Positions 14,378 through 60,247 of a stretch of DNA of 64,000 bases are shown one piece after another. The stretch is taken from NCBI GenBank assembly GCA_028820695.1, contig JAPPIB010000050.1:145683-209682 (forward strand). Direction: 5' to 3'. The position numbers and the translations under genes are program-made. This stretch comes from Acidiferrobacterales bacterium (GTDB lineage: Bacteria > Pseudomonadota > Gammaproteobacteria > Arenicellales > JAJDZL01). The notes beneath the pieces are model-generated. The model did not search any database and was not told where the DNA came from. It was given only the letters and a program-made list of their open reading frames with translations. How positions within the stretch are numbered: the first letter of the stretch is position 1; each line of letters opens with the position of its first letter.

Positions 14378-15658
14378 TTGAACACCCAGTTACAACAGGA
14401 ATTTGATGTCGGTACCTATGTGACCCTGTTGGCATCGGCTGCGCGAGCGGCATCCTATGGACTTGCCCGCTCTTCGACCGATCAGCGCAATCACGCGTTG
14501 TTGACTGCCGCGAAGTCAATCGAATCCAGTTCAATCAGCATTCAGAAGGCCAACCAGATTGATCTCGGACTCGGTCGCGACAAAAATCTGTCCGATGCGA
14601 TGCTGGACCGCCTGGAACTGACAGATTCCAGAATCAAGGCGATGGCCGATGGGTTGAGGCAGACGGCACAGTTGCCGGACCCGGTGGGTGAAATTTCCGG
14701 AATCATCCAACGTCCGTCAGGTATTCGGGTAGGGCGCATGCGCGTACCGCTGGGTGTCATCGGTATCATCTACGAGTCCCGTCCGAACGTGACAGCAGAC
14801 GCAGGCGCGCTGTGCCTCAAGTCGGGTAACGCAGTAATACTCCGGGGAGGTTCTGAAGCATTCAACTCCAATCGTGCGATCGTTTCGTGCTTGCGTTCCG
14901 GACTTGAGTCAGGCGGGCTCAATGCTGATGCGCTCCAGTACGTCGAAACGACGAACAGAAGCGCAATCGACGAAATGGTGACGCTGCACCAATTCATTGA
15001 TGTGATTGTCCCCCGGGGTGGCAAGGGATTGATTGAGAGGATCGCGGCCCGGTCCGCAATTCCGGTGCTCAAGCATCTTGATGGGGTTTGCCATGTCTAT
15101 GTTGACGATGACGCTGATATGGACAAGGCAGTTCCAATTGTGATGAATTCAAAAACCCATCGATACGGTGTCTGCAATGCCATTGAGACTCTTCTCGTGT
15201 CCGAGCGGGTTGCAAACGACCTATTGTCCCGGGTGGTTCCGATGCTGACTGAAAAGGGTGTTGAACTGCGTGGTTGCGAGAACAGCCGCCGCTTGTTTCC
15301 GCAAATGCTGGCGGCGAATGAAAATGACTGGTACGAAGAGTATCTGGCACCGATTTTGGCGGTCCGGATCGTCGATGGCCTGGATCAGGCGATCGATCAT
15401 ATCCGGAAGTATGGCTCCGAACACACCGACTCGATCGTGACAGAAAGTATCGTTCATGCTGAACGTTTTCTCAGGGAAGTGGACTCAAGTTCGGTCATGG
15501 TCAATGCCTCGACACGGTTTGCAGACGGTTTCGAATACGGACTCGGCGCTGAGATCGGAATCAGTACCAACAAGCTCCACGCCCGCGGGCCGGTAGGACT
15601 TGAAGGACTTACCATGCAGAAATTTGTCGTATATGGAGACGGCACAATCAGAGAATAG
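14378..15658 (+). CDS. proA: glutamate-5-semialdehyde dehydrogenase
   Basis: [27 protein letters not shown] and [10 protein letters not shown] (catalytic Cys context) are ProA hallmarks. The first in-frame start is TTG. Confidence 0.93.
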
Positions 15659-15735
15659 ATCTTGATCTTTGCCCCTATCTTCACCGACCTGTGTAATCAG
15701 GCTGTCGTCCGAGTCGGAGCCGATGACGAAGTATC

Positions 15736-16386
15736 GTGCAGATGAAACCGATCGGAGTATTCGGTGGCACCTTTGATCCGATACATTTTGGTCATATAAG
15801 ACCAATGCTGGAGATCCGCGAATCTACGGGAATTTCTCAGGTTCATTACATTCCGAATTCCCGTCCCGGACACCGCGATCAGCCTCAGACAGCATCCATC
15901 CATCGTTGGAACATGATGGTTCTGGCACTTGACAGTCGCCCCGACTTCGTTGCCGATGACCGGGAACTGCGACGGGCCGGAATGTCATATATGGTGACGA
16001 CTCTGCGTTCGCTGCGAAGTGAATTCGCGTTGCGTCCACTATGTCTGATTCTGGGAATGGATGCATTCCTGCATATCCATCGCTGGTACTGGTGGGCGGA
16101 TGTCCTGAAACTCGCGAACATCATCGTAATGAATCGTCCGGGTGCGGATTTTCCGAATCAACTTCCCGGATGGTGGCTGCAGGCGCTGGAGTTCAATCCC
16201 TGGATACTGCACAGGAAAATGTCGGGGTGCATACTTCACGTTGCCGTGGAACGGGTGAACATATCCGCCACCGAGTTGAGAAGCAGGATTGCGCGGGGAG
16301 ACGACTGCTCTGAGTCGCTGCCAGAATCTGTGTACGAATACATCAACAAGCACAATCTCTACCAAAGTACAGGAGGAACACCATAG
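15736..16386 (+). CDS. nadD: nicotinate-nucleotide adenylyltransferase
   Basis: IGVFGGTFDPIHFGH (the (H/T)xGH nucleotidyltransferase motif) and ISATELRSRI (ISSTxxR motif), in the proA-nadD-rsfS order. Confidence 0.92.
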   Translation: MQMKPIGVFGGTFDPIHFGHIRPMLEIRESTGISQVHYIPNSRPGHRDQPQTASIHRWNMMVLALDSRPDFVADDRELRRAGMSYMVTTLRSLRSEFALRPLCLILGMDAFLHIHRWYWWADVLKLANIIVMNRPGADFPNQLPGWWLQALEFNPWILHRKMSGCILHVAVERVNISATELRSRIARGDDCSESLPESVYEYINKHNLYQSTGGTP

Positions 16387-21968: not shown

Positions 21969-22703
21969 TTATCTGAGATCAATCCAATCGTCACTGTATT
22001 CGATCAGTCGCTCTATACGCGAGGGCTCAACAAGAGGCACATCCCGATTGATCGCAAATCGTCTCGCAGAAGCTGGAATATTCCTCAATACTGTAAATTG
22101 TCCGCCGTGGAATTGCCACGTGAAAACATGTCTTCCACCATTCCTTTCGCAACCATTGAGATTGCCGCGAGGATTCAGACCCCATTTGTAATTGCCTGCT
22201 GCATACTGTCGAAGCTCGTCTTCAAAAATCACAAATTGCTTGGTTTCGACATTTCGAATGAGAACGACAATCCGAAGATCATTGTGTTCATTTCTCGCAG
22301 TGTTGAGACGGGCATTCCAGATTGACAATACAGCATCGCCGGTTTTCTGTAAATCCGCGTGCGGGTCACTTATCCCGAAAGAATAATCAGGTGAATTCCG
22401 ACCGGAAATCAGACGTACTCGTTGTTGGCCGAACGGATTGCTGGATTGGATTGTCTTAACCGACCAAGCGGTAGTCTGAAGGGCAACATCAGCCAATCCT
22501 AGGGGACTCGCATAATCCACACCGTTTACAGCGGTTGCAAATATTTCACTGAAGTCATTGCCCGAGATATCCTTTCTGCCAATCGCTAGCCGAAGTACGA
22601 TTTGCTTGCCAATCTCCCTAATGACGTATTCTGGAACTCGACCAATCGGCCATGGACCGGACTGAGAACCGCGGACACCGCGTAATCTCGGGTAGTCAAG
22701 CAT
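21969..22703 (-). CDS. putative type II restriction endonuclease, partner of the adjacent C5 methyltransferase
   Basis: This 244-aa ORF starts 8 nt inside the 3' end of the methyltransferase gene on the same strand. I recognised no family. A candidate PD-(D/E)xK-like element is present: NEHNDLRIVVLIRNVETKQFVIFEDE (D ... E-T-K across two predicted strands). The assignment rests mainly on context. Confidence 0.5.
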   Translation of the reverse strand: MLDYPRLRGVRGSQSGPWPIGRVPEYVIREIGKQIVLRLAIGRKDISGNDFSEIFATAVNGVDYASPLGLADVALQTTAWSVKTIQSSNPFGQQRVRLISGRNSPDYSFGISDPHADLQKTGDAVLSIWNARLNTARNEHNDLRIVVLIRNVETKQFVIFEDELRQYAAGNYKWGLNPRGNLNGCERNGGRHVFTWQFHGGQFTVLRNIPASARRFAINRDVPLVEPSRIERLIEYSDDWIDLR

Positions 22704-23697
22704 TTACTAACTTGCGGATAACAGCTTTCACCATCGGGACCGGTACTGCATTTCCCGCCTGCTTGCGTGCCTGGGCGTCGACTTCGTGCAAATTGAAACT
22801 GTCTGGGAATCCCTGCAGGCGGAACATTTCTCGCGGTGTCAACCGACGCACTCCATTGACCAGCAGGTAGTTATAACTTGCCCCAGCACGCAAGGCGCAT
22901 GAAAACGGGTGGCTGGAAACATTGCCCCCTTTGTTCTCATGCCAGATTGACGGTATGGTATCGGCTTGGTGTGCCTTTTGCCTCGAGTTTCTGATTCTAT
23001 CGCTGACATAGTGCCGCTTGTCAGGCGACTTTTCCAACAATTCTGATAGCGGCTTCATGGATATGTTTGGCTCAGGCCAGTCAAAATCAGTCAGCCCATC
23101 AATCCGGCCAACGATCAGGACTCGCTCCCTTCTTTGTGGCAATCCATAGTCCAATGCGTTTAGAACACGGAAGTCAACTTCGTAATCCAGCGACTGCAGC
23201 ACGGAAATAATGCGGTCCATGATCCGTCCACCATCTGAAGTAACGAGTTGCTTGACATTCTCCAATACGAATGCTGCCGGGCGTTTGCGCTCCAGTATCC
23301 TCGCGATGTCGAAGAAAAGTGTTCCTCTTGTATCCGAAAATCCCCGACGGTTGCCTATGATGCTAAACGGCTGGCAGGGGAATCCGGCACATAGCAAATC
23401 ATGGTCAGGCACATCGGACGCATCGATGCAAGTAATATCACCATTCGGGGGAATACCAAAATTAGACTTGTAAACGCTGCGTGCCGGCTTGTCAATTTCG
23501 CTGGCGAATACGCATTCAAGACCAACCGCAGCAGCAGCGATGTGAAATCCGCCGACTCCACAAAACAAATCGATGAATGTATTCAGGCTGCGTCCCTGAG
23601 TACTTGCATGCCCAATGATGCGTGAATGTGTGGAAACACTGTCTGTCCGTGTTGGAGAATTCATCTGTGATTGATTACTAACTCCGGACATTATCAA
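22696..23697 (-). CDS. dcm: DNA (cytosine-5)-methyltransferase
   Basis: All canonical C5-MTase motifs are present: I DLFCGVGGF, IV GFPCQPFS, VI VLENVK, VIII LPQRRERV, X QAGNAVPVPM. The conserved blocks (GDIT..DVPDHDLLCAGFPCQPFSI.G...GF.D.RGTLFFDIARI) closely resemble the M.HhaI-type subfamily as I remember it. The short variable region does not let me infer specificity. Confidence 0.93.
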   Translation of the reverse strand: MIMSGVSNQSQMNSPTRTDSVSTHSRIIGHASTQGRSLNTFIDLFCGVGGFHIAAAAVGLECVFASEIDKPARSVYKSNFGIPPNGDITCIDASDVPDHDLLCAGFPCQPFSIIGNRRGFSDTRGTLFFDIARILERKRPAAFVLENVKQLVTSDGGRIMDRIISVLQSLDYEVDFRVLNALDYGLPQRRERVLIVGRIDGLTDFDWPEPNISMKPLSELLEKSPDKRHYVSDRIRNSRQKAHQADTIPSIWHENKGGNVSSHPFSCALRAGASYNYLLVNGVRRLTPREMFRLQGFPDSFNLHEVDAQARKQAGNAVPVPMVKAVIRKLVNA

Positions 23698-30301: not shown

Positions 30302-30844
30302 TTACTGAACCAGTTCAACCAGATAGTCGACTGCGGCTTGGACGTCTTCGTCGCTCAACATCGAAACACCGCCTTTGGGCGGCATGATGCCCCGCTGACC
30401 CTGAAAGCCGTTAATTGCGCTGTCATACAAGGTCGCTATGCCTTTTTCGATTCGCGGAGCCCAATTTTCCGCGTCACCGGGTTTCGGTGATCCGGTCAGC
30501 CCGACATCGTGACAGACGTAACAGTATTGTTTGTACACAGCTTCCCCGGGATGCCCGGCCGACGCTTCACTGTCACCGGAATTCATTGAGGAGGCTGCCG
30601 TGTCCGCCGACGCGGCCATTGCCACCGAAACACCTTCATCTGCGATTTCACCTACATTCAAATCTCCGATGGGTTGGGTTCTCTGCGCGATGACGCGTTG
30701 CGTATATTCTTCCGTCTGTGCTTGGAGTTTGTCATCCATCGAACCTCCGATCACAACACCGAGTGTGATCAGTACCAGAGTCAGTACGATCAAGGCGATG
30801 ATCATCTTCGAAAACGATTTTACGAACTGGGCATCAGTCATCAT
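30302..30844 (-). CDS. membrane-anchored cytochrome c5-type c-type cytochrome
   Basis: N-terminal TM helix (MIIALIVLTLVLITLGVVIGG) and an Ala/Ser/Asp-rich linker. The haem site is CYVCHD (CxxCH), followed by GLTGSPKPGD...W..R...G...LY..A..G......MPPKGG, typical of cytochrome c5. Confidence 0.8.
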   Translation of the reverse strand: MMTDAQFVKSFSKMIIALIVLTLVLITLGVVIGGSMDDKLQAQTEEYTQRVIAQRTQPIGDLNVGEIADEGVSVAMAASADTAASSMNSGDSEASAGHPGEAVYKQYCYVCHDVGLTGSPKPGDAENWAPRIEKGIATLYDSAINGFQGQRGIMPPKGGVSMLSDEDVQAAVDYLVELVQ

Positions 30845-31060: not shown

Positions 31061-31091
31061 TTGAGTGAGCACGCAATTCGGAATGTATAAT
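31061..31091 (+). promoter_or_regulatory. candidate sigma70-type promoter for the yeeE operon
   Basis: TTGAGT (31061-31066) and a perfect TATAAT (31086-31091) preceded by TG. The 19-nt spacing is long. The element lies about 45 nt upstream of the TTG start at 31135. Seen by eye only. Confidence 0.3.
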
Positions 31092-31134
31092 TTTTTTCCA
31101 TCATGCAAATGCTGACACGTCAAGGTAAGAATTC

Positions 31135-32343
31135 TTGGATGCCCTGATCGGAGTTCCTGTGTTGGTTGGATTTTTCCTGACCTCAGTGATTTTGGGAATC
31201 ACCATAAGTCGAACCAACTTCTGCACGATGGGTGCGGTTTCGGACTGGGTCAACTTGAACGACCGCGGCAGGATGGGAGCCTGGTTGCTGGCAATCGCCT
31301 CCGCCATGGTGGTAGTCTCGTTGCTTGAGGCGGTTTCATTGTTTGAGCTGAACCAGCAAAGACCGCCTTATCGATCGGCAACATTTGCCTGGCTTCGCTA
31401 TTTGGTTGGCGGACTTATGTTTGGCGTCGGCATGACACTGGCGGGTGGATGCGTCAGCAGAAATCTCGTCAGACTGGGTGGCGGAAACATCAAGTCGTTG
31501 ATCACGCTGATTATCGCAGCGGTTTTTGCCTATTTCATGACGAAAACCGTGTTCTTTGAGATCGCATTCTATAGCTGGATGCACCCGCTCTCTATTGATC
31601 TGGCATCAATCGGAATACCCGCTCAAGACATCGGTTCGATCCTGTCGGCAATCTTTCCCGCACTCAGCAAGCCTGTTGTGCATGTATTGATCGCGCTGGC
31701 GGTCGGTGTTGCGGTAATTTTCTTTGTCGCAAAGACCAGCGGTATTCAAGGCAATATGCTGAATATCGTTGCAGGTTTGATGATCGGCGGCTGCGTTACC
31801 GCTGGATGGTACCTGACTTCCGGTCCACTTGGATTGGAATGGGCGGAAGCCGCGCAGTGGGCAGACAATCCGCCGGTCGGAGTCGGCATGCAGTCGTTTA
31901 CGTTTGTCAATCCACTCGGGGAGTACATCAGCCTGGTACTGGAGCCCGGCGGTCTTTCGACGTTGCTCACTGTCGGCATGCTGGCGGCAGCAGGGCTGGT
32001 TATCGGTTCACTTGCTCATTCACTGGTGAGCAGGAATTTTCATGTTTCATGGTTCGCGTCATTTGGCGACTTTACCGCAAATGCCATCGGTGGGGTATTG
32101 ATGGGAGTTGGCGGAGTTTTGGCGCTTGGCTGTACGATCGGTCAGGGCGTCAGCGGCATATCGACATTGGCACTGGGGTCGTTCATTACGCTGGCCGCGA
32201 TCATTTACAGTTGTACCGCAACATTGAAGTACCAATTCTACAGGCTGGTTTACGACGACGCGAAGGTTTCCGATGTGTTCGTCACCACATTGGTGGACAT
32301 TAGATTGTTGCCGAACACAAAGCGGCGACTCGATCCGATCTGA
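31135..32343 (+). CDS. yeeE: YeeE/YedE family sulfur-compound (thiosulfate-type) channel protein
   Basis: 402 aa and polytopic. Three Cys-containing motifs sit in the expected positions: RTNFCTMGAV, LAGGCVSRNL and LALGCTIGQG. These resemble the conserved cysteines of YeeE/TsuA-type transporters. Confidence 0.85.
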   Translation: MDALIGVPVLVGFFLTSVILGITISRTNFCTMGAVSDWVNLNDRGRMGAWLLAIASAMVVVSLLEAVSLFELNQQRPPYRSATFAWLRYLVGGLMFGVGMTLAGGCVSRNLVRLGGGNIKSLITLIIAAVFAYFMTKTVFFEIAFYSWMHPLSIDLASIGIPAQDIGSILSAIFPALSKPVVHVLIALAVGVAVIFFVAKTSGIQGNMLNIVAGLMIGGCVTAGWYLTSGPLGLEWAEAAQWADNPPVGVGMQSFTFVNPLGEYISLVLEPGGLSTLLTVGMLAAAGLVIGSLAHSLVSRNFHVSWFASFGDFTANAIGGVLMGVGGVLALGCTIGQGVSGISTLALGSFITLAAIIYSCTATLKYQFYRLVYDDAKVSDVFVTTLVDIRLLPNTKRRLDPI

Positions 32344-32361
32344 ACGACAGGGGGATAGAAC

Positions 32362-32793
32362 ATGTCTGAACTTTCATCTTGGCTGCCAACCGATCGGCTG
32401 TATGACGAATCATCGTATCTTTGGGTCAAGGAAGAATCGGAAAGTGGAAATTTACTGGTTGGAATCGGGCATCCGACTATCGAGTCTCTCGGAGAGCTAT
32501 CCTACCTTACACTTTCAGGCCCCGGAACTGAGGTCAAGCGAGGCGAATCGGTAGGATCAATGGAAGCAGCGAAGATGACCGGCGAAATTGTGAGCCCGGT
32601 CAGCGGGACCATCGTTCGACGAAATGAGCGAGTGCTGGAAGATCCGCGTACCGCAGGTGGAGACCCTTATCGCGACGGCTGGCTGTTCTCGATTGCACCG
32701 ACATCCTGGGACGAGGACAAGTTTCGTCTGCTCGATTCCGGAAGGTTCTATGACACCCTTCCCGAAGACTTGCGCGGTCCCGCGTCAAATTGA
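32362..32793 (+). CDS. GcvH-like lipoate-binding protein (LbpA-type candidate)
   Basis: H-protein fold strings are present: YLWVKEE....VGI...ESLGEL.Y. The lipoyl-lysine context is SVGSMEAAKMTGEIVSPVSGTIV (K71), and DPY.DGWLF follows. No gcvT or gcvP is nearby. Confidence 0.85.
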   Translation: MSELSSWLPTDRLYDESSYLWVKEESESGNLLVGIGHPTIESLGELSYLTLSGPGTEVKRGESVGSMEAAKMTGEIVSPVSGTIVRRNERVLEDPRTAGGDPYRDGWLFSIAPTSWDEDKFRLLDSGRFYDTLPEDLRGPASN

Positions 32794-32799
32794 CTTGTT

Positions 32800-33915
32800 T
32801 TGGTGAAAGCTCGACTACTGACAGACGACTCGGTTGACGATCAGACCGGATTGTCAGTCGACGATGCGCTGGCTCGCATCAGTTCGGCAGCGTCATCGCT
32901 TACACTGAGACTCTACACCTATCAGCCGTGCGTGCTCGTGGGTCGGTTTCAGCACGTCCGCGACGAAGTTGACCTTAATCGATGCAGGGAACTGCGTGTA
33001 CCCGTCAATCGTCGCCCGACCGGGGGAGGTGCGATCATCATGGGACCTGAACAATTGGGAATCGCACTGGTGGTTCCGCCGGACAGCAGGGCTGTCGGAC
33101 GAAAGTCGGCGTCGCTGATGCGGGATTGTGCGAAAGGTATCGTGAGCGCACTTCGTAGTTTTGGTGTTGAAACTGAATTCCGAGGAAAAAATGATCTGGT
33201 TGTTTCAGGCAGGAAAATCGCGGGCTTGGGCCTTTACCAGGCACAGGGTGGCGGAATCCTGTTTCACGCATCGTTATTGCTTGATCTGGATATTCAATAC
33301 ATGCTGACAGTACTCAAGACCGCATTTGGGAATACACCCGACAGGGGCCTGGATACCATTTCGCAGCGCATTGCGACGCTTCGCGGCGAGGTCAGTCCAG
33401 ATGTGTCCATATCGGACTTGACACAAGCGGTCGAACTTGGATTCGCCAAGGAGTTTTCAATTGATTTTTACCGCGGACACTTGAGTCCGCAAGAGCGGAT
33501 GCTGGCGAATCAGCTTGTCGCCAGTCAGTATGGCAGCCGGCAGTGGATATATCACAGTGGGGCCCGGATCAAGGACCGGGTCGGTTGCTATCGCCTCAGG
33601 ACACAAGGTGGAACATTGGATGTCAGGGCAATTGTGGCAAAAAGCACCCTCAAATCAGTATTTGTAAATGGAGATTTTATCGCTGCGGAAAATGCGATTT
33701 CTGATCTGGAGAGTAGTTTGAGGTGGCACAAGACCGATACAGATGAATTGAACAGAACCATCGAGCGGTCACATCTAAGAAACAGGCAGTTTTGGGATCG
33801 AATATCGGCGGCAGACATCTCACAAGCGGTGCTGGGAGCGATTGGACGAATCGATAGTGATTGCGTTGATCCTGCGCCAAATTCGTGCTTTGTGCGCAGC
33901 GGGATGACGCAATGA
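32800..33915 (+). CDS. lipoate--protein ligase family protein, long fused form (sLpl(AB)-like)
   Basis: LplA/LipB-family blocks RRPTGGGAI and GKNDLVVSGRKIAGLGLYQAQGGILFHASLLL are present. The extra ~120-aa C-terminal region is consistent with a fused accessory domain. The start is TTG 32800 or GTG 32803. Confidence 0.8.
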   Translation: MVKARLLTDDSVDDQTGLSVDDALARISSAASSLTLRLYTYQPCVLVGRFQHVRDEVDLNRCRELRVPVNRRPTGGGAIIMGPEQLGIALVVPPDSRAVGRKSASLMRDCAKGIVSALRSFGVETEFRGKNDLVVSGRKIAGLGLYQAQGGGILFHASLLLDLDIQYMLTVLKTAFGNTPDRGLDTISQRIATLRGEVSPDVSISDLTQAVELGFAKEFSIDFYRGHLSPQERMLANQLVASQYGSRQWIYHSGARIKDRVGCYRLRTQGGTLDVRAIVAKSTLKSVFVNGDFIAAENAISDLESSLRWHKTDTDELNRTIERSHLRNRQFWDRISAADISQAVLGAIGRIDSDCVDPAPNSCFVRSGMTQ

Positions 33916-34892
33916 GTCAGGCGGTTACCTTTATTGATAATCGAATTTCCGAGAACCATGCGGAATCGATCAATCTCAAGCTTCGAAAACGCAACTTTGG
34001 AGAACAGATTGTCTTTCATGCACCTGGCCTGAAGAAGTTCCGGACGGCCGAATACGATTGCCACGATGCATCTGAATTTGTAGCAGTCAGTGTCACTGGC
34101 GAAGCCTGTTCCCTGAATTGCGAGCACTGTAAAACCGGGGTATTGAAAGGAATGCATGACCTGCCATCGGTGAACCAGTCGTTGTATGAACTTTGTTCGA
34201 AACTGCACGATCAAGGTGCGCGCGGCGTCCTGATTTCCGGCGGTAGTGATCGGCGGGGCAGGGTTCCTCTGAAGAAACATATCGCTGAAATGATACGGAT
34301 TCGTCATGAACTTGGGATGACGATCCGCGTCCATCCCGGCTTGCCCGATGAGGAGACCTGTTCAGAATTGGCTGATGTTGACATCGATGGCGCGATGATT
34401 GATGTGATCGGGCATGAGAGGACAATTCGTGAAGTCTATCATCTCGACGCGGATGTCGGAGATTATGAGGCGGTACTTGAGCGATTGGAACGTTACAGAG
34501 TACCTTGTGTTCCACACATCGTCATGGGATTGCATTTCGGCCAGATGCTCGGCGAGGAATATGCACTGGAGATGATTTGTCGTCATCAGTTCACAACTCT
34601 GGTTCTGGTTATATTGATGCCTTTATCGGGAACCCCGATGGCTGCAGTTCAACCGCCTGCACTGTCAGAGGTCTCCGAGTTTTTCGACCTGGTCAGAGGC
34701 CGGCTGCCAACCAGCCCGATCATGCTGGGTTGTGCTCGCCCGCTGGGAAAGGCCAAGGTACTGATCGATCGGGCGGCCATTGACTCAGGGTTGAACGGAA
34801 TCGCCTATCCTGCCGACGGGATAGTCGAGTATGCCCGACATCGCGGACTGACGCCGAAATTCGTCAATGCCTGCTGTGGCGTCAATTGGTGA
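33912..34892 (+). CDS. radical SAM protein, LipS1/LipS2-type lipoyl synthase component (candidate)
   Basis: CX3CX2C triad in VSVTGEACSLNCEHCKTG, and a TIM-barrel-sized protein ending in NACCGVNW. The ATG at 33912 overlaps the ligase stop (ATGA). The assignment rests on context with the H-protein and ligase. Confidence 0.7.
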   Translation: MSQAVTFIDNRISENHAESINLKLRKRNFGEQIVFHAPGLKKFRTAEYDCHDASEFVAVSVTGEACSLNCEHCKTGVLKGMHDLPSVNQSLYELCSKLHDQGARGVLISGGSDRRGRVPLKKHIAEMIRIRHELGMTIRVHPGLPDEETCSELADVDIDGAMIDVIGHERTIREVYHLDADVGDYEAVLERLERYRVPCVPHIVMGLHFGQMLGEEYALEMICRHQFTTLVLVILMPLSGTPMAAVQPPALSEVSEFFDLVRGRLPTSPIMLGCARPLGKAKVLIDRAAIDSGLNGIAYPADGIVEYARHRGLTPKFVNACCGVNW

Positions 34893-34925
34893 ACAAGCAA
34901 GACAAGGGAGAAACGGATAGGATTT

Positions 34926-36017
34926 ATGGCAACTACAGGAATACCGACAAAACTACAGGATCAACACTTTCAAATCAGTCCTGATTACGTTCGAATCAGC
35001 GTTGCCGCCGCCATTGAGCTTGGCTTGGCTCCTGGCAGAATCAATGGCTGCAGCTGCAATTGCATCAATCTGCTGCAGAATTATCCGCAGGGATGTGCAG
35101 CCAATTGCTCGTATTGTGGATTGGCTCGGGAGCGTCCGGGAATTGCTGAGGACAACAGTTTTATTCGAGTCGATTGGCCGCTGTATGAAACCGATCTGGT
35201 CGCCGAGAAAATCGCTGAGAAAGAATCTCGGGACACGGTGGGCAGAGTATGCATTGCACAGGTCCAGGATCATCGGGCGACCGAAGATCTGATCGACATG
35301 GCTTTCAGGGTACACCGCGCGTCGCCAATGGTGCCGATTTCCGCCCTGGTTACTGCGACACTCTTGTCGGAGGATGATTTATACAGAATCAAGGATTCGG
35401 GCGTCGACATAATCGGTGTGGGTTTGGATGCGGTGACGGCTGATGTTTTCGAACGAACTCGGGGAAGACTTGCGAAGGGCCCGCATCGCTGGGATCAACA
35501 CTGGGAAATCGTGCGCGCCGCACGTCGAATCTACGGCCCTATGAAAGTCAATTGCCATCTTATTGTCGGACTCGGTGAAACTGACAAGGAGATGTTCGAT
35601 ATGATCTATCAGTTGAAACAAGAGCAGATTGCAGGATATCTGTTTTCTTTCAACCCTGAACCGGGAACACAAATGCAGCATGTTCCCAGGGCTCCATTGA
35701 AAAGGTGGCGACGAATTCAATTTGTCAAGAACCTGATTGAGGAACATGATCTGGAACCGACGGCACTTGAGTACGATGCTGCCGGAGCATTGATCGGAGT
35801 CAACTATCCAACGGACCCGGCAAGTCTGGTACTCCAAAATGGAGACGCGTTCATGACCAATGGCTGTCCCGACCGTCAGGGAGTGATGGCGTGCAACCGT
35901 CCCTATGGTTCCTACCGACCTGGCGAGGACTTCAGGGACTACCCGTTCTTACCGGATCGCGATGAATTGGAAAAGATCAGTGCGCAGACGCAACTGGAAC
36001 AGATTCGGGCAACCTGA
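34926..36017 (+). CDS. radical SAM protein, LipS1/LipS2-type lipoyl synthase component (candidate)
   Basis: CX3CX2C triad in QGCAANCSYCGLARE, preceded by an extra CSCNC cluster. 363 aa. It is the second rSAM gene of the operon. Confidence 0.7.
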   Translation: MATTGIPTKLQDQHFQISPDYVRISVAAAIELGLAPGRINGCSCNCINLLQNYPQGCAANCSYCGLARERPGIAEDNSFIRVDWPLYETDLVAEKIAEKESRDTVGRVCIAQVQDHRATEDLIDMAFRVHRASPMVPISALVTATLLSEDDLYRIKDSGVDIIGVGLDAVTADVFERTRGRLAKGPHRWDQHWEIVRAARRIYGPMKVNCHLIVGLGETDKEMFDMIYQLKQEQIAGYLFSFNPEPGTQMQHVPRAPLKRWRRIQFVKNLIEEHDLEPTALEYDAAGALIGVNYPTDPASLVLQNGDAFMTNGCPDRQGVMACNRPYGSYRPGEDFRDYPFLPDRDELEKISAQTQLEQIRAT

Positions 36018-36069
36018 CTTGCCGAAAAGCAGCGAGCAGGTGACAGACAACTGATCAAGGAGGTTGATT

Positions 36070-36465
36070 GTGGATAACAAGACGACTGAGCGCCGGCTGA
36101 TCACATCCGGTTCAGTGTTTGAAGAAAAAGCCGGATACTCCCGGGCGGTATGTTCTGATCCGTGGGTTTTTGTTGCGGGTACCACTGGATTCAACTATGA
36201 CACAATGGAAATTTCTGACGACGTCGTTGAGCAATGTCGTCAGACACTGCAGAACATAGGCAAGGTTCTGGCGCAAGCGCAAAGTGGATTTGAGGATGTG
36301 GTTCGTGTCACTTATATCTTTCCACACAGTGAAGACTTCGAGTTATGTTGGCCGGTGCTGAGGGAGTATTTCGGCGATATTCGGCCGGCATGTACGATGT
36401 ACAGCGCAAATCTCGCCGATTCCAGAATGAAAGTGGAGATTGAGGTCACCGCGCTGAAGAGATAA
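36070..36465 (+). CDS. ridA: RidA/YjgF family reactive-intermediate deaminase
   Basis: GYSRAV......FVAGTTG ... C.QTLQNIGKVL..A...F.DVVRVTYIF ... VEIEVTA is the YjgF/RidA pattern. AGGAGG at 36058-36063 favours the GTG at 36070 over the TTG at 36064. Confidence 0.85.
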   Translation: MDNKTTERRLITSGSVFEEKAGYSRAVCSDPWVFVAGTTGFNYDTMEISDDVVEQCRQTLQNIGKVLAQAQSGFEDVVRVTYIFPHSEDFELCWPVLREYFGDIRPACTMYSANLADSRMKVEIEVTALKR

Positions 36466-45856: not shown

Positions 45857-46672
45857 TCACTCGATCGGAGTCTCAGCGGAATTCCCCCATTCAGACCATG
45901 AGCCCGCGTAACCGCGAATCCGATCGTAACCCAAGGACTTCAGCATGGCGTAGCTGTGTGACGACCGATGGTGCGTCTGGCAATAGGTGATAATCTCCTT
46001 GTCCGGCGTAATGCCACTGTGATGCAACATCTCAATGAGCTCATCAGCGGGTTTGAAGCGGTTGTTTCGGGTCGTATCAATCGTGTCAAGCCAATTGATG
46101 TTTCTGGCTCCTGGAATGTGCCCGCCTCGCATCGCTCTGATGTCAAATCCTTCATACTCCATTTTCGATCGGGCATCAAGCAGGCCAATATCCGAATTTT
46201 CCAGATTGGAAAGAATATAACTCTTGTCAGCCTGCGCTTTGCCGTTGACGTGAACCGGGTAGTCACTGCGCTCGACACTGGACGGTGTCGAGGTTTCTAC
46301 CGGGTATCCCTCATTTTTCCAGGCTGTAAAGCCGCCATTAAGTAACGACGTGCTAGGATGGGCCAGCACATCCAGTGTCCAGAGCAGTCTCGACGCACGT
46401 CCATTGCCTTCCGAGTCATAGGCGACAACGTGCATATTCCGTGTCAGACCGACTCGGGAAAATACATCCTGCAAATTTTCCACAGGTGGTAACGTACCGC
46501 TGGTCGGAATAGCCCCAGACACGATGTCAAGATAGTCAACGTGCACGGAGCCAGGAATCCTTTCCCTTTCGTACGCATCAGTGTCGCCGACGTCAACTAT
46601 GAGAAGGTCGGTCTGACCGAGAACTTCTTCAAGCTCAGAAGGTTCCAACAGAAACGGTAAATTTAACGTCAT
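45857..46672 (-). CDS. tandem-domain rhodanese (thiosulfate sulfurtransferase), RhdA-type active-site loop
   Basis: Two rhodanese domains in 271 aa. The catalytic loop YCQTHHRSSHSY resembles the CQTHHR loop I recall from Azotobacter RhdA. Confidence 0.88.
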   Translation of the reverse strand: MTLNLPFLLEPSELEEVLGQTDLLIVDVGDTDAYERERIPGSVHVDYLDIVSGAIPTSGTLPPVENLQDVFSRVGLTRNMHVVAYDSEGNGRASRLLWTLDVLAHPSTSLLNGGFTAWKNEGYPVETSTPSSVERSDYPVHVNGKAQADKSYILSNLENSDIGLLDARSKMEYEGFDIRAMRGGHIPGARNINWLDTIDTTRNNRFKPADELIEMLHHSGITPDKEIITYCQTHHRSSHSYAMLKSLGYDRIRGYAGSWSEWGNSAETPIE

Positions 46673-51199: not shown

Positions 51200-53440
51200 A
51201 TGATTCCCATTGCCGGCTATGCAAATCGCTGGAGCGTTGGCCAAAACGAAACAATCCAATTCAAGGTTAGCAGCGAATTTGAGCAGCCCTATTCCGCTCG
51301 ACTTGTGCGCATAACCTGTGCCGATCCCAATCCTGATGGACCCGGCATCATTGAACATGATCTAGGGGACGTTTTTGCCGGTGAGTTTCCCTCCAGAAAA
51401 CAACCCGTCAAACTCGGATCCTATGGATTTGTACCCGTCGACGGCGCACTGGTACACTCTGATCACTACTCGGTCTGTGTGAATATCTGGCCGACATTGC
51501 CTCAATGCGGGAAGCAGACCATCATCTGTTTCAGGCAGGCGTCGGAGCTTAAACTGCTGGAGGTGTATTTGAAAAACGGTCACTTAGCTGCCTGCATAAA
51601 CGAAGACACAGTGCTGAGAAACCGAAGTGCCTTGCTTGAGCGATACTGGTACACCGTCAGGTGCATAGTCGACCTTAAAGCCAATGAATTGCACCTTGAT
51701 CAAGTTCCTCACAAGATCTCTTTCGAGGGTATAGAAAAAGGCAGGGATTCGTTGAGAATATCTCACGCGCCTTCACTGCCTGCGATAGATGAGATCTACA
51801 TAGCTTCAAGCGGCCCTGAACTGGACGCAGCACACTATAACGGCAAGATTGAACGTCCTGGGATTTATAAAGGAACATTTGACGAAGGATTCCCCAACCA
51901 ACCCGCAGCTATAGCGAATGAAGAAATACTTGAGAGTTCCTTTCAAGAGCAAATGGATACTTCGATTTTTGCGTTGTGGGACTTTTCACTGGACATTCAG
52001 ACTCAAAATATCACCGACATTGGTCGGTTTAATTTACATGGCAATCTGATCAACTGTCCCACACGAGCGATGAGAGGTTCCAACTGGAGCGGTAATGAAA
52101 TGGCCTGGAAACATGCTGCGAATGAGTATGGGGCCATCCATTTTCACGATGATGATATTTACGATTGCAATTGGCAAACTGACTTTGAGTTTACAGTTCC
52201 CAGCGGGTTTCCAAGCGCAATGTACTCGCTGCGAATTGAGTGTAACGACACCTACGAGGACATTCCGTTTTACGTTCGCCCCCAATTCGGCAAACCACAG
52301 TCAAAAATCTGTGTAATCGTTCCGACGTTCACCTATACCGTTTACACCAATCAGGCCCGTGCAATTGCCGGACCTGAGTATGAAGCCCTGGTGAAGGAAC
52401 GGGGAACTCGCCCCTGGACGCCCGACGAAATTCGAGATTTTGGACTGTCGACCTACAACTACCACAACGATGGCAGCGGAATCTGCCTTTCCTCAAGCCT
52501 CCGGCCATCGCTGACGATGCGTCCGAATTACATCACCATTTGCAGGGATTATGGGGGCTCGGGTATGCGGCATCTGCCGGCTGACACCCATCTGCTCGCC
52601 TGGCTTGAACACTTCGGCTACGAATACGATGTTGTATGCGATGAAGATGTTCACCGCGAAGGTGCGGAATTACTGAAACCCTACTCAGTGGTAATGACAA
52701 TGAGTCACCCGGAGTATCACACCCGCAATACACTGGATGCGATTGGTCAATACACCGAGTTTGGCGGGAGGCTGATGTATATGGGTGGAAACGGATTTTA
52801 CTGGAAGGTGGCCATCCGTGACGACCTTCCCGGGATGGTGGAAATTCGAAGGGGTGAAGGCGGTATTCGAATTTGGGCAGCGGAACCCGGTGAGTACTAC
52901 AACGCGCTTGATGGTGAGTACGGCGGTATGTGGCTGCGCAATGGACGCCCTCCGCAACAGATCGCCGGCGTTGGATTTACCGGTCAGGGTGACTTTCAGG
53001 GAACCTACTACCGACGCAATCCAGATATACCCAAACGATTTGAGTGGGTTTTCGACGGAATTGCCGATGAGATTCTGGGCGATTTCGGATTGAGCGGCGG
53101 TGGTGCCGCAGGTTTCGAACTCGACCGGATCGATTATGGACTGGGCACGCCGCTTCACGCCGCCGTCCTGGCCAGCTCAGAGATCTATCCCGAACATTTT
53201 GTCCTCGTTCCCGAAGAAATCCTTTCTCACCAGAGAACCCGTACCGGGGATCCGGTCGAAAAACTGATTCGTGCAGACATGACTATTTTCGAGACAAGCT
53301 TCGGTGGCTTTGTATTTTCTGTGGGATCAATCACCTATTGCGGCAGTCTGCCGTGGAACGGATTCGACAACAATATTTCTAAACTGACGCAAAACGTGCT
53401 CAACCGATTTTTGAGCAAGGATCACAGACGCACGGGGTAG
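51200..53440 (+). CDS. N,N-dimethylformamidase large (beta) subunit family protein
   Basis: The 746-aa protein is collinear with the DMFase large subunit as I remember it. Matching blocks are IAGYANRWSV..GETIQFKVS, LVRI.C.D.NP.GPG, YGAIHFHDDDIYDCNWQTDFEFTVP, LPADTHLLAWLEHFGYEYDV, SHPEYHT, GGGAAGFELDR.DY.LGTP, and RADMT.F....GG.VFS.GSI.Y.GSL.WN..DNN.SKLT.NVLN.F. Confidence 0.85.
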   Translation: MIPIAGYANRWSVGQNETIQFKVSSEFEQPYSARLVRITCADPNPDGPGIIEHDLGDVFAGEFPSRKQPVKLGSYGFVPVDGALVHSDHYSVCVNIWPTLPQCGKQTIICFRQASELKLLEVYLKNGHLAACINEDTVLRNRSALLERYWYTVRCIVDLKANELHLDQVPHKISFEGIEKGRDSLRISHAPSLPAIDEIYIASSGPELDAAHYNGKIERPGIYKGTFDEGFPNQPAAIANEEILESSFQEQMDTSIFALWDFSLDIQTQNITDIGRFNLHGNLINCPTRAMRGSNWSGNEMAWKHAANEYGAIHFHDDDIYDCNWQTDFEFTVPSGFPSAMYSLRIECNDTYEDIPFYVRPQFGKPQSKICVIVPTFTYTVYTNQARAIAGPEYEALVKERGTRPWTPDEIRDFGLSTYNYHNDGSGICLSSSLRPSLTMRPNYITICRDYGGSGMRHLPADTHLLAWLEHFGYEYDVVCDEDVHREGAELLKPYSVVMTMSHPEYHTRNTLDAIGQYTEFGGRLMYMGGNGFYWKVAIRDDLPGMVEIRRGEGGIRIWAAEPGEYYNALDGEYGGMWLRNGRPPQQIAGVGFTGQGDFQGTYYRRNPDIPKRFEWVFDGIADEILGDFGLSGGGAAGFELDRIDYGLGTPLHAAVLASSEIYPEHFVLVPEEILSHQRTRTGDPVEKLIRADMTIFETSFGGFVFSVGSITYCGSLPWNGFDNNISKLTQNVLNRFLSKDHRRTG

Positions 53441-53447
53441 TTGTCAG

Positions 53448-54188
53448 GTGACGAAGTACGCTTTTCCACTCATCGCCTTTACTGTTCTTGCTGTCTTTGC
53501 CTATTTCCTGAACTGGGACCTTCTTCTGTCCCTGGACTTTTCTGTCGTTTGGGAATACCGCGTGGTCCTGCTCAAGGGGCTCATGGTTACACTTGGACTG
53601 ACTGCTTGCGCGGCTGTCTCAGGGCTGCTCTTCGGAACCGTTCTGGCGATTGCCAGCCAGTCCGCAATTGCTCCACTTCGCTGGCTCGTGATCGCCTTTG
53701 TCGAGATCTGGCGCAACACGCCGCTGCTCGTGCAGTTGATCTGGATTCATTTCGCACTGCCGCTTGTTACGGGAATCAATACTACTGCTCTTGAGAGCGG
53801 TGTAATCGGAATCACCTTGCAGGCGAGTGCCTACTTTACGGAAATCGTCCGGGCCGGGATTGAATCGGTGCCCAAGGGACAGTGGGAGGCCGCCTATTCG
53901 CTGGCACTCCCTTCAAGGATTCGCTGGACCCGGGTGATTCTGCCGCCAGCCATCCGCACCATGATTCCGCCACTTGTAAATCTCACGATCAGTTTTTTCA
54001 AAGGGACCGCGATTCTATCCATACTTCACGTAAGCGAACTGATGACAGTAACCAATCGAATCAGCAACGTTACTTTCAAACCGGTGGAACTGTTCAGTGC
54101 AATCGCCGTCATTTACTTCATTGTGGGTATTGTGATGAGCAAAACCACGCTCAGGCTTGAATACTTTTTGCAAAAAAGAGAACGCTAA
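53448..54188 (+). CDS. amino acid ABC transporter permease (His/Glu/Gln/Arg/opine family)
   Basis: About 5 TM segments. The conserved loop is EIVRAGIESVPKGQWEAAYSLALP...W.RVILPPAIR..IPPLVN. GTG start. Confidence 0.9.
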   Translation: MTKYAFPLIAFTVLAVFAYFLNWDLLLSLDFSVVWEYRVVLLKGLMVTLGLTACAAVSGLLFGTVLAIASQSAIAPLRWLVIAFVEIWRNTPLLVQLIWIHFALPLVTGINTTALESGVIGITLQASAYFTEIVRAGIESVPKGQWEAAYSLALPSRIRWTRVILPPAIRTMIPPLVNLTISFFKGTAILSILHVSELMTVTNRISNVTFKPVELFSAIAVIYFIVGIVMSKTTLRLEYFLQKRER

Positions 54189-54853
54189 TGAGATTCGAAT
54201 GGGATCAACTGATACGCTACGGCCCGGATCTTTTGCAGGCCTTTGGTGTAACCATTTGGATTTCAGCGGTCTCCCTGTTGATCGGGATTGTTGTTGGCAT
54301 GTTCGCGTGCCTGGGGAAATTGCAGGAAAAAGGGCTTTCATTCCGAGTTGCAAACGGATTCATTGATTTTTTCAGAACCATTCCGGAAGTTGTACTGATT
54401 TTCTGGGTTTATTCGTGTCTCCCCCTGCTGCTGTCGATTCGAATATCGAGCGAAGCCTGCGGCATCATCGCACTTTCACTGTTCAGCGCAGCCTATCTCG
54501 CTGAGATTTTCCGCGCCGGTATTCTTGCAGTGCCCAAGGGACAGGTCGACGCTGCCAAGGCACTCGCTATTCCAAGATACTACATCTGGCGGCAGATCAT
54601 CATTCCACCGGCCATCCGTAGAATGATGCCGGCATTCGTCAATTTTTTGACTGAACTACTGAAGGCAACCAGTTTGCTGTCCGCAATTGCAGTGGGTGAG
54701 ATGGCCTATACGGCCAGCATACTCGGTGCACAGACTTTAAGCTACTTCGAATTTCTGACTGCTATTGCGGTTCTGTACTTTATCCTGATTTTTCCGTTCA
54801 GCCTGCTTGCCCGCCGTTCGGAGAAAAAACTGCTTCAGAAAACCGGGCACTGA
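54188..54853 (+). CDS. amino acid ABC transporter permease (second subunit)
   Basis: Paralogous to the previous gene. The conserved loop is EIFRAGILAVPKGQVDAAKALAIP......IIIPPAIRRMMPAFVN. Its start overlaps the previous stop. Confidence 0.9.
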   Translation: MRFEWDQLIRYGPDLLQAFGVTIWISAVSLLIGIVVGMFACLGKLQEKGLSFRVANGFIDFFRTIPEVVLIFWVYSCLPLLLSIRISSEACGIIALSLFSAAYLAEIFRAGILAVPKGQVDAAKALAIPRYYIWRQIIIPPAIRRMMPAFVNFLTELLKATSLLSAIAVGEMAYTASILGAQTLSYFEFLTAIAVLYFILIFPFSLLARRSEKKLLQKTGH

Positions 54854-54866
54854 AGGTCACCATTCA

Positions 54867-55619
54867 ATGGAATCTGAAAGAACATCCGGCGAACGCTTCA
54901 TTTCCTGCCGAAATGTTACCAAGCTCTTTGGCTCGTTCAAGGCATTGGATGATGTTTCCATCGACATTGACAAGGGTGAAATCGTTTGCGTTGTCGGACC
55001 TTCCGGCAGTGGAAAATCGACTTTCCTTCGCGTCATCAATGTGTTGGAAACGGTGAGCAGCGGAGAAATCATCGTCAACAACACACATTTGCCCGGCAGT
55101 CAAAAAGATGTTGAAGAAGTGCGACGGGAAGTCGGGATGGTTTTTCAGCAGTTCAATCTGTTTGAGCACATGTCAATCCGCGAGAATGTAACTTTTGCGC
55201 CGCGGGTTGCCCGGGGAATGTCAAAGACTGAGGCAAATGATTTGGCCGAGTCACTGCTTTCACGCGTCGGCATTGTCGAGCAAATTGAGAAATACCCCAA
55301 CCACTTATCCGGCGGCCAGCAACAGCGAGTGGCTATTGCCAGAGCGCTGGCGATGAAACCGCAAGCTATGCTGTTTGATGAACCGACCTCTGCGCTCGAC
55401 CCCGAAATGGTCATTGAAGTACTGGATGTAATGCGAGAACTTGCACACTCCGGAATGACAATGATCATCGTCACGCACGAAATGGGGTTTGCGAAAGAAG
55501 CTGCGAGTCGTATGTTGTTTATGGCCGATGGACAGTTCGCTGTCGATGCAGATACTGATGAGTTTTTTCGCGGTGGGGACAATCCAAAGCTTCAGCAGTT
55601 CCTGTTAAACATCCTGTAA
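54867..55619 (+). CDS. amino acid ABC transporter ATP-binding protein
   Basis: Walker A GPSGSGKST, signature LSGGQQQRVAIARAL, Walker B MLFDEPTSALD and H-loop VTHEM. The ATG at 54867 (codon 21) avoids overlap with the permease. Confidence 0.95.
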   Translation: MESERTSGERFISCRNVTKLFGSFKALDDVSIDIDKGEIVCVVGPSGSGKSTFLRVINVLETVSSGEIIVNNTHLPGSQKDVEEVRREVGMVFQQFNLFEHMSIRENVTFAPRVARGMSKTEANDLAESLLSRVGIVEQIEKYPNHLSGGQQQRVAIARALAMKPQAMLFDEPTSALDPEMVIEVLDVMRELAHSGMTMIIVTHEMGFAKEAASRMLFMADGQFAVDADTDEFFRGGDNPKLQQFLLNIL

Positions 55620-55808
55620 ACGACTCACCCAACGATGTATCACAACTTGATTTACAGCTCCGGCATTGACTCAAGGATACGAATCGTATGGTGGAATATG
55701 GCACTTCGGGGCAACAAATCATTACAATGGGGGTTGAGTTTCATAGAATCTCTCCCCATCGTGAAGAATCGATGAAGGGAACCATAATGAATATCTGGAG
55801 GAAAAGTT

Positions 55809-56600
55809 ATGATTTTTAGAGCATTAATCATCAAACTTGGCGTAGTATTAAGTTTACTTGCTGTCGGGTGGGGATCCGCTGTCGCACAGGACAATCTCAT
55901 CGGCGTAATCAAGGAGAGAGGGGAAATTCTCGTTTGTCATGCAGAAGCTTTGCCGTGGGGAGCCAAGGATCCGAAAACAGGGAACTGGGTCGGCACCGAC
56001 ATTGAAGCAGCAAAACACCTCGCTGGTATTATGGGAGTCGATTACAAACCTGTCGATTCGCAGTGGGGCACCCTGATTCCGAGTTTGGAAACTGGAAAGT
56101 GCGATATTGTGATGTCTCCAATGTTTCGTACAGCCGAACGAGCAATGCGAGTTTTGTTTTCGAATCCCTCGGGATACGAAACGCAGGGAACAGCAGTGCA
56201 TATGGACTCCGATGCCCAATCACACAGTGATCTGGATAAGGAAGGCATGATCATCGCAGTCGGTTCGGGCACAGCAGACGAAGCGTTTGCCAATCGCTTC
56301 TTCAAAATGGCACAAGTCAAGCCACTTGTGAGTGACAAACTGTCAACCTATTTTCTTGAAGTGGCCAGCAAACGAGCTGATGCGGTTTTGACCGACAGTT
56401 CATCACTGCGTAATTTCATCAAGCAGAATCCAGGCATGAATCTGCGTATCATTGATGACGCACCGCTCAATCCGCAAGGTTATGCCTATGCGGTACAGCC
56501 GGGCGAATATCACTTTGTCAACTTCATCAATGTTTGGCTGGAGACGATCGAGCAGCAAGGACTGAAAGACCAGTGGTATGAAATGGTCACCGCGGAGTAA
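55809..56600 (+). CDS. ABC transporter substrate-binding protein (family 3, polar amino acid type)
   Basis: Signal peptide (LSLLAVGWGSAVAQ), a periplasmic-binding fold of 263 aa, and motifs such as GK.D.VMSPM and D.....NPQGYAYAV. Confidence 0.88.
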   Translation: MIFRALIIKLGVVLSLLAVGWGSAVAQDNLIGVIKERGEILVCHAEALPWGAKDPKTGNWVGTDIEAAKHLAGIMGVDYKPVDSQWGTLIPSLETGKCDIVMSPMFRTAERAMRVLFSNPSGYETQGTAVHMDSDAQSHSDLDKEGMIIAVGSGTADEAFANRFFKMAQVKPLVSDKLSTYFLEVASKRADAVLTDSSSLRNFIKQNPGMNLRIIDDAPLNPQGYAYAVQPGEYHFVNFINVWLETIEQQGLKDQWYEMVTAE

Positions 56601-56647
56601 TGTGACTTTCCAGGTCAAACACCGCAGTACAACCTAAGAATCAGTAC

Positions 56648-57964: not shown

Positions 57965-58027
57965 AAGACTGCTCGCTTATTGAATTTACGTCAGGCGAGA
58001 CCGTTGGCGCGCACCAGATGCCCTGCA

Positions 58028-58528: not shown

Positions 58529-58719
58529 TTGCTGTCTCCATTAGCACACGGAAATCCTTCCGTATCGTATCAATATCTGGCTGTCGATCGAATTATAGTG
58601 ACGCTGAACGGCTGGTTTCACCAATATGGCAGGCTTTCAGGGCGATAGGATTAATCGTCAGGGCTTTTCCAGGTTTGCATATACAATTCGGACAACAGTA
58701 AGTTTCAATTGCTCTGTGC

Positions 58720-60228: not shown

Positions 60229-60247
60229 ACCCGATCAGAAACAAATC

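Follow-up and report, generated by a model that had tools for sequence, protein, structure and literature searches.

The stretch of 64,000 nucleotides analysed here (the window) comes from an Acidiferrobacterales bacterium and is part of a 281-kb contig of a metagenome-assembled genome. On its + strand, positions 31135-36017 are occupied by five closely packed genes encoding a YeeE-like channel, a GcvH-like lipoyl carrier, an sLpl(AB)-like lipoate:protein ligase and the radical S-adenosylmethionine (SAM) lipoyl synthase subunits LipS1 and LipS2. The successive intergenic distances are 18, 6, -31 (an overlap) and 33 nt. We consider it probable, though far from settled, that the five genes constitute one operon, an accessory module that serves the oxidation of sulfane sulfur in the cytoplasm by the type I sHdr-LbpA pathway.

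The first gene of the predicted operon (31135-32343) begins with a TTG codon and encodes a protein of 402 amino acids (aa), whose residues 26-359 match the Sulf_transp family (PF04143, E 4.4e-52, 178 bits versus a cut-off of 27). Its TGA stop codon at 32341-32343 is followed by a spacer of 18 nt (32344-32361), in which a ribosome-binding site (GGGGGA, 32350-32355) can be read from the sequence, and by the ATG of the carrier gene at 32362. The carrier (32362-32793) is a GcvH-like protein of 143 aa (PF01597, E 4e-24), which is devoid of cysteines and has its lipoyl lysine K71 encoded at 32572-32574. The third gene (32800-33915) codes for a ligase of 371 aa comprising a catalytic and a C-terminal accessory domain (PF21948, E 1.5e-37, and PF10437), which also matches TIGR00545 with E 1.4e-44, a score under the cut-off of that profile. 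The lipS1 gene (33885-34892) just exceeds the cut-off of its NCBIfam model (NF053742, 231.2 versus 230 bits). The overlap of 31 nt with the ligase gene applies to the longest open reading frame (ORF); database calls start later and yield a protein of 326 aa. For lipS2 (34926-36017), NF053743 is the best match (E 3.8e-58), with 197 bits against a cut-off of 270. An earlier model-made reading of the same DNA, hereafter the original prediction, had noted the 143-aa GcvH-like gene 18 nt downstream of yeeE, and the ORF coordinates, both Pfam matches and the position of K71 confirm this layout.

Upstream of yeeE, the block TTCGGAATGTATAATTTTTTTC (31077-31098, +) contains an extended -10-like element, TGTATAAT (31084-31091), approximately 45 nt 5' of the yeeE start. 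Two Arenicellales relatives (L002 and L003) share this block with the window without any difference, and the surrounding intergenic DNA has diverged. It is unique within the window, and no match is expected in shuffled sequences. A generic promoter and terminator scan, which overall performed no better than on shuffles, did not flag it. The TTCGGAATGTATAATTTTTTTC/TGTATAAT block is thus the likely promoter of the operon, and such a promoter-like block is found only in front of yeeE.

The YeeE-like channel and the lipoyl carrier

The YeeE-like protein possesses the motifs FCTMG (Cys30), GGCVS (Cys106) and LGCTIG (Cys333), whose cysteines show no variation among 16 homologues and correspond in an alignment to Cys22, Cys91 and Cys293 of TsuA. 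An AlphaFold model of the protein (predicted local distance difference test, pLDDT, 75.5; predicted template-modelling score, pTM, 0.80) was matched by Foldseek to TsuA/YeeE of Spirochaeta thermophila (PDB 6LEO) with E 1.8e-10 and a TM-score of 0.81 when normalised to the target and 0.67 when normalised to the query. The three motifs had been described as intact and the channel as functional in appearance, and the invariance, the alignment to TsuA and the fold bear out that it looks intact. At the sequence level, the protein shares 20% identity with TsuA (E 3e-9 in a search of the PDB) and stays below the cut-offs of the NCBIfam TsuA models NF052577 and NF041049 (86.3 versus 400 bits and 55.7 versus 645 bits, respectively). 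Public gene calls for this protein are too short at the N-terminus (393 aa at NCBI and 371 aa in ENA/Logan), and the 371-aa version begins at Met32, by which Cys30 is lost. Relatives have kept the TTG start, and a length of 402 aa is common to all close homologues; one of the relatives (P0004) is 80% identical.

No docking motif specific for the carrier was found in the channel, whose conserved C-terminal cytoplasmic tail also occurs in relatives without a neighbouring carrier gene. Moreover, there was no YeeE-GcvH fusion among the best 150 representatives. As a candidate fusion, P0302 (539 aa) was rejected as an over-extended gene call, and the long GcvH-domain proteins P0402 and P0434 were rejected because of their unrelated N-terminal parts.

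The carrier scores below the equivalog cut-offs for GcvH (76 versus 115.85 bits for TIGR00527 and 85 versus 117 bits for a second profile), and Pfam scans of the window revealed neither gcvT nor gcvP. LbpA proteins are reported to have an N-terminal and a C-terminal cysteine, both strictly conserved, which are absent from GcvH (Cao et al. 2018, PMC6067878). Both are present in the LbpA that relatives encode within their shdr cluster (in RGCDFP and DGCNP), to which the cysteine-free carrier of the window is only 24-26% identical. A neighbour-joining tree was built from 84 GcvH-like proteins, of which 84/84 have a lysine in the lipoyl-lysine column. In it, the window carrier falls into a cysteine-free clade that holds all carriers whose genes immediately precede slpl(AB), and this clade is separate from canonical GcvH and from two clades with cysteines. 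A literature search found no paper that names a cysteine-free carrier clade ('LbpA3'-type) or reports a lip operon that starts with a YeeE gene.

A connection of the cysteine-free clade to sHdr is provided by locus L119, at which a cysteine-free carrier gene comes directly after shdrA-H-B3, etfBA and a gene for a 696-aa EMO-like protein; these genes fit the published definition of a type II shdr cluster (PMC11094781). In the approximately 16 kb examined at this locus, it is the only GcvH-like gene seen. Since the sole GcvH-like gene beside this cluster is cysteine-free, such a carrier is a plausible sHdr partner, and proteins of this type can plausibly serve an sHdr system. Many metagenome loci (among L091-L148, e.g. 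L100, L104, L110, L116, L129-L131, L135 and L138) also contain three tandem GcvH-like genes in front of slpl(AB)-lipS1-lipS2. These triplets consist of two cysteine-bearing proteins and a cysteine-free one, and it is always the latter whose gene adjoins that of the ligase.

Conservation of the five-gene cassette

The nearest species representatives, L002 and L003, are metagenome-assembled genomes labelled 'Arenicellales bacterium' with chromosomes of 3.7 and 3.8 Mb, in which YeeE is 87% identical and the synteny is identical to that of the window. The order yeeE, gcvH-like, slpl(AB), lipS1 and lipS2 recurs in L002, L003, L082, L083, L084, L085/L086 and L087. The adjacency of yeeE and the carrier gene in related genomes had been named beforehand as a point on which the original prediction hinged, and it is conserved at 8 loci that cover 56-100% YeeE identity, carrier identities down to 47% and at least 4 different flanking contexts; LipS2 is 72-92% identical across all cassette loci. 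In 5/6 distinct relative loci, with L086 counted as a duplicate of L085, the spacer between yeeE and the carrier gene measures 18-22 nt; that of L087 has about 180 nt. The cassette is flanked by cytochrome c and ubiK genes in the clade of the window, by phytoene-synthase-like and lytB genes together with shdr in L082 and L083, by a gene for gamma-glutamyltranspeptidase in L084 and by a malic enzyme gene in L087. Because the same five-gene order is kept in differing flanks, the cassette appears to be held by selection and not by shared ancestry of the neighbourhood. The conserved adjacency therefore argues for a functional link of the channel with lipoate-dependent sulfur oxidation.

The varied genomic contexts also mean that the cassette behaves as a mobile unit, and yeeE could have landed beside a mobile lipoylation module by chance and been carried along with it. 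The small size of the subclade linked to YeeE, with only 2 representatives (at the 50%-identity level) at E <= 1e-30 among 1.84 billion, would suit such an origin. However, gene order and short spacer persist down to 56% YeeE and 47% carrier identity, the promoter-like block is found only before yeeE, and the cassette stands beside shdr in two lineages. We therefore regard a chance association as very improbable.

Two genes next to the operon are conserved to a lesser extent. A RidA/YjgF-like gene (36064-36465, +; PF01042, E 1e-24) starts 46 nt 3' of lipS2 and may be co-transcribed with the operon in the window. The gene is found after lipS2 only in the closest clade of the window and is absent in L082-L084 and L087. 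In L085 (13584-17651) and L086 (7939-12006), an inserted gene for a 1355-aa Eco57I-type restriction-modification protein separates lipS2 from the ridA-like gene, of which a fragment is left. Judging from this insertion, ridA does not belong to the conserved cassette. On the other side, a gene for a membrane-anchored mono-haem cytochrome c (30302-30844, -) is oriented divergently from yeeE, an arrangement that is kept in the closest clade (L002, L003 and L085) and not in the remoter cassette loci.

To see the carrier outside of the cassette, metagenomes were scanned with an alignment of cassette carriers, which yielded 58 loci, 49 of them with downstream DNA and 46 with at least 600 nt upstream. 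The gene following the carrier is slpl(AB) in 45/49 loci, mostly succeeded by lipS1 and lipS2. By contrast, YeeE is encoded upstream of the carrier in 0/46 loci; a cysteine-bearing LbpA is the upstream gene in 11 loci, and shdr genes lie within 8 kb in about a dozen. The channel shows the complementary picture: of the genome loci that encode YeeE relatives with 41-50% identity, 0/78 have any GcvH-like or lip gene within 10 kb. Their usual setting is tolB-pal-cpoB-queE-queC-yeeE, at times with soxYZA near, and the pair of yeeE and carrier gene was never seen without the ligase and synthase genes. The frequencies of carrier-ligase (45/49) and YeeE-carrier (0/46) neighbours indicate that the unit of carrier, ligase and synthases is older and widespread and that yeeE was added in front of it in one lineage. 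Thus, the carrier has not taken the place of YeeD, as the original prediction had it; instead, yeeE joined a lipoylation module. The accompanying statement that a TusA partner is normally encoded here is true of the TsuA/YeeD clade and fails for this branch, in which an adjacent tusA gene is present in 1/78 loci of the 41-50% relatives.

These counts bear on the mechanism that had been proposed for the locus, according to which the cysteine-free carrier would be the first cytoplasmic protein to accept sulfur from the channel and would be dedicated to that task. Its dihydrolipoyl dithiol would attack the sulfur at the cytoplasmic cysteine of the channel, and the resulting lipoyl persulfide would be passed to sHdr, thereby bypassing TusA/YeeD. 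Several observations are compatible with this idea: the two genes remain immediate neighbours over 56-100% YeeE identity, neither the operon nor the window has a TusA-like gene, and the lipoyl arm is the only thiol chemistry available to a carrier without cysteines. Moreover, dihydrolipoate accepts sulfane sulfur from rhodaneses, LbpA has been proposed as a sulfur-binding entity (PMC6067878), and TsuA strictly requires a soluble partner (PMC11582611). However, the pair always comes with the ligase and synthase genes, which makes a pairwise link inseparable from a link to the whole module. The carrier clade does without YeeE in all 46 informative metagenome loci, the 41-50% YeeE relatives do without a GcvH-like gene in all 78 loci, and the closest relatives encode TusA and DsrE3 with shdr. 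The conserved tail of the channel, present as well in members lacking a carrier neighbour, and the lack of fusion proteins speak in the same direction. Taken together, we judge a dedicated acceptor role of the carrier unlikely. A shade less likely still is the reading that, in this Arenicellales-like lineage, the lipoyl arm of the dedicated carrier serves as a cofactor-based handover device that replaces the cysteine persulfide relay of TusA/YeeD and delivers to sHdr; it is chemically plausible and has nothing specific in its support.

The composition of the operon allows a further explanation, in which the channel would participate in cofactor assembly, either by supplying sulfur or by taking up a precursor such as lipoate for maturation by LipS1/LipS2 and sLpl(AB), comparable to the putative fatty-acid transporter LipY. 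Indeed, the other four genes of the operon all concern the carrier and its lipoylation, and some lip clusters contain the transporter gene lipY (PMC10332631). On the other hand, the three pore cysteines, which are typical of channels for inorganic sulfur anions, are invariant, and the other lip modules do without YeeE in 46/46 cases. We know of no YeeE-family member that carries organic acids, and lipoyl synthases draw sulfur from their own iron-sulfur cluster, as has been established for LipA and is assumed for LipS1/S2. A role in cofactor assembly is thus improbable.

A second, divergent gene with an LplA catalytic domain (about 330 aa, 23-27% identical to sLpl) is often located 3' of lipS2 (L087 at 15078-16070, L096, L111-L113, L117-L119, L122, L130 and L141). 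It could encode an amidotransferase or relay enzyme and is absent from the window.

Connection to sHdr-dependent sulfur oxidation

As stated in the original prediction, no TusA-like ORF occurs in or around the operon. A six-frame scan of the 64 kb for CPxP motifs gave only matches in non-coding frames and leucyl-tRNA synthetase, tblastn with two TusA queries returned nothing in the window at E <= 1e-4, and Pfam scans of all 56 window ORFs of at least 90 aa detected no TusA, DsrE or Hdr. The only sulfurtransferase, and the only other sulfur-related gene of the window, is unlinked to the operon. It encodes an SseA-like two-domain rhodanese (45857-46672, -), which resembles 3-mercaptopyruvate sulfurtransferase (103 bits versus a cut-off of 250) and adjoins a gene for a DinB-type polymerase.

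The relatives provide the genes that the window lacks. Approximately 3.5 kb upstream of yeeE, L082 and L083 contain a divergently oriented type I cluster (dsrE3-shdrC1-B1-A-H-C2-B2). By using the less conserved sHdrH as a query, homologues were found on the chromosomes of L002, L003 and L084. The shdr loci of L002 (L089) and L003 (L088) are 120-125 kb away from the cassette and share the order lipX-like amidotransferase, dsrE3, shdrC1B1AHC2B2, a 140-aa gene, a 147-aa two-cysteine lbpA and a 74-aa tusA (GLNCPLP; 13461-13685 in L088). A further locus, L090, has the same layout and probably belongs to the lineage of the window, as suggested by its GC content of 0.504 and a tetranucleotide correlation of r = 0.964 with the window, the best match in composition (two loci of one genome: 0.93-0.95). 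Furthermore, YeeE and sHdrB1 or sHdrH matches fall on contigs of equal size in at least 8 cases. TusA is therefore not missing from the lineage, since the closest complete genomes encode it. A tusA gene elsewhere that pairs with this YeeE had been named as a finding that would speak against the lipoyl carrier as acceptor. The relatives go some way towards this: a tusA gene does exist, at the end of the dsrE3-shdrC1B1AHC2B2-x-lbpA-tusA cluster of two genomes and of L090, and its pairing with YeeE is hypothetical. Just upstream of dsrE3, a near-perfect palindrome of 22 bp, TATATTAGAAATTTCTAATATA, is located in L088 (6276-6297), L089 (6304-6325) and L090 (6222-6243), with a degenerate copy in L082 (4235). 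It is probably the operator of a putative regulator.

It has been shown that sHdr systems always come together with sets of DsrE, TusA and rhodanese proteins (PMC11094781) and that sLpl(AB) and LipS1/S2 form a dedicated route for LbpA maturation (Tanabe et al. 2023, PMC10332631). For Hyphomicrobium denitrificans, SoxT1A was described as a YeeE-like importer for the sHdr pathway; few of the genomes that have type I shdr encode SoxT proteins (Li et al. 2024, PMC11582611), so that another importer is needed. The assignment of the five-gene operon to the type I sHdr-LbpA pathway is based on the gene identities, the tight spacing, the preserved five-gene order, the linkage to shdr in some relatives and the full dsrE3-shdr-lbpA-tusA cluster in the closest complete genomes. 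By analogy to TsuA, which transports thiosulfate, and to SoxT1A, the three-cysteine pore would import reduced sulfur, either thiosulfate or periplasmic sulfane sulfur, across the inner membrane. The imported sulfur would enter the DsrE3/TusA/rhodanese network that accompanies sHdr, and lipoylated carrier proteins would present it to the sHdr complex for oxidation to sulfite. The carrier gene may follow yeeE simply as the gene for the substrate of the downstream ligase and lipoyl synthases. Co-transcription of yeeE would then allow import capacity and the supply of holo-carrier to rise together.

The direction of transport could also be the reverse, with the channel moving sulfite (or thiosulfate) made in the cytoplasm by sHdr-LbpA out of the cell. 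The sHdr reaction does yield cytoplasmic sulfite, the exporters of model organisms are only tentative (TauE and YeiH; PMC11582611), and the channel-like YeeE fold could in principle conduct both ways. However, the characterised members of the family, TsuA and SoxT1A, are importers (PMC11582611), and although the present data favour neither direction, we consider export as improbable as the involvement in cofactor assembly.

Several points weigh against the proposed role in the type I sHdr-LbpA pathway. The shdr, dsrE and tusA genes are absent from the 64-kb window, and their presence in the same genome (shdr and tusA) is deduced from the relatives and L090. Searches for sHdrB1 and sHdrH homologues placed no match on the 281-kb contig, sHdrB1 being too conserved to inform; a distance of 120-125 kb as in the relatives would put shdr past the contig end, which would explain this result. 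The palindrome TATATTAGAAATTTCTAATATA is absent from the window and from the upstream regions of the cassettes, leaving co-regulation with shdr unsupported. Moreover, the carrier lacks both LbpA cysteines (PMC6067878), which makes it uncertain how it would act with a type I sHdr complex, and the channel is far from TsuA (20% identity) and, with 402 aa, longer than TsuA and the SoxT proteins (330-350 aa).

The entry route of reduced sulfur is an acknowledged gap in the understanding of bacteria with sHdr-LbpA, because SoxT1A, the sole demonstrated importer, is rare with type I shdr (PMC11582611). For sulfur-oxidising marine gammaproteobacteria related to Arenicellales, the 402-aa YeeE clade is a concrete candidate for such an importer. 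The relatives also demonstrate that one genome can encode a two-cysteine LbpA together with shdr and tusA and, among lipoylation genes, an LbpA-like carrier without cysteines, which raises the question of the role of the latter. Finally, the locus could serve as a clean system for asking whether a lipoyl arm takes sulfur directly from a channel.

Two other regions of the window deserve mention. At 21969-23697 (-), a gene for a 333-aa C-5 cytosine DNA methylase shares 8 nt with a 244-aa ORF without a Pfam match, in DNA of lower G+C content (0.489); the two genes probably constitute a type II restriction-modification pair. A gene island at 51200-62724 (+) encodes an N,N-dimethylformamidase-beta-like protein (746 aa), an amino-acid-type ATP-binding cassette (ABC) transporter, two class III aminotransferases, an M81/MlrC peptidase and a creatinase/prolidase-like M24 peptidase.

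Comparison with known systems

Among the characterised YeeE/YedE-family proteins, SoxT1A is the closest in its proposed task. Like the channel of the window, it has three conserved cysteines and a genetic tie to the shdr-lbpA-lip set, and the same job of import is proposed for both, with handover to rhodanese, DsrE3 and TusA. The SoxT proteins differ in length (330-350 aa; PMC11582611) and in their neighbours, since they are encoded beside sox/soxSR or rhd/dsrE, whereas the 402-aa channel heads a carrier and lipoylation operon. Pfam scans of the window detected no sox genes within the 64 kb and no sox, ArsR-type or thioredoxin SoxS genes beside the operon. The TsuA/YeeE-TsuB/YeeD systems of E. 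coli and S. thermophila (PDB 6LEO and 8J4C) share the fold and the three aligned pore cysteines C22, C91 and C293 with the window channel. In contrast to them, the latter falls short of the NCBIfam models (86 and 56 bits versus 400 and 645) at 20% identity and has no adjacent TusA-like TsuB. Moreover, the context of TsuA-TsuB is assimilatory, while that of the window channel is dissimilatory. Thus, the channel would resemble SoxT1A and TsuA in its job and, according to the NCBIfam cut-offs, its length and its neighbours, appears to belong to neither.

With LbpA1 and LbpA2 (Cao et al. 2018, PMC6067878), the carrier has in common the GcvH-like fold, the lipoyl lysine, the failure to qualify as a GcvH equivalog and a gene beside those for sLpl(AB) and LipS1/LipS2. 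Unlike these proteins, it is without both LbpA cysteines and groups with the cysteine-free carriers encoded next to slpl(AB), including those of type II shdr clusters. The lipoylation genes are, as far as can be read from their sequences, ordinary members of the sLpl(AB)-LipS1/LipS2 pathway, in which a ligase and two radical SAM synthases are encoded with the acceptor protein (Tanabe et al. 2023, PMC10332631). The operon of the window differs from that pathway in having no lipT, lipX or lipY (a lipX-like amidotransferase gene accompanies shdr in the relatives) and in being led by a yeeE gene; YeeE is not mentioned in the cited study. What seems to be new is therefore the architecture, in which a distinct clade of 402-aa YeeE proteins has been joined, within a predicted transcription unit of a small lineage, to a carrier and lipoylation module.

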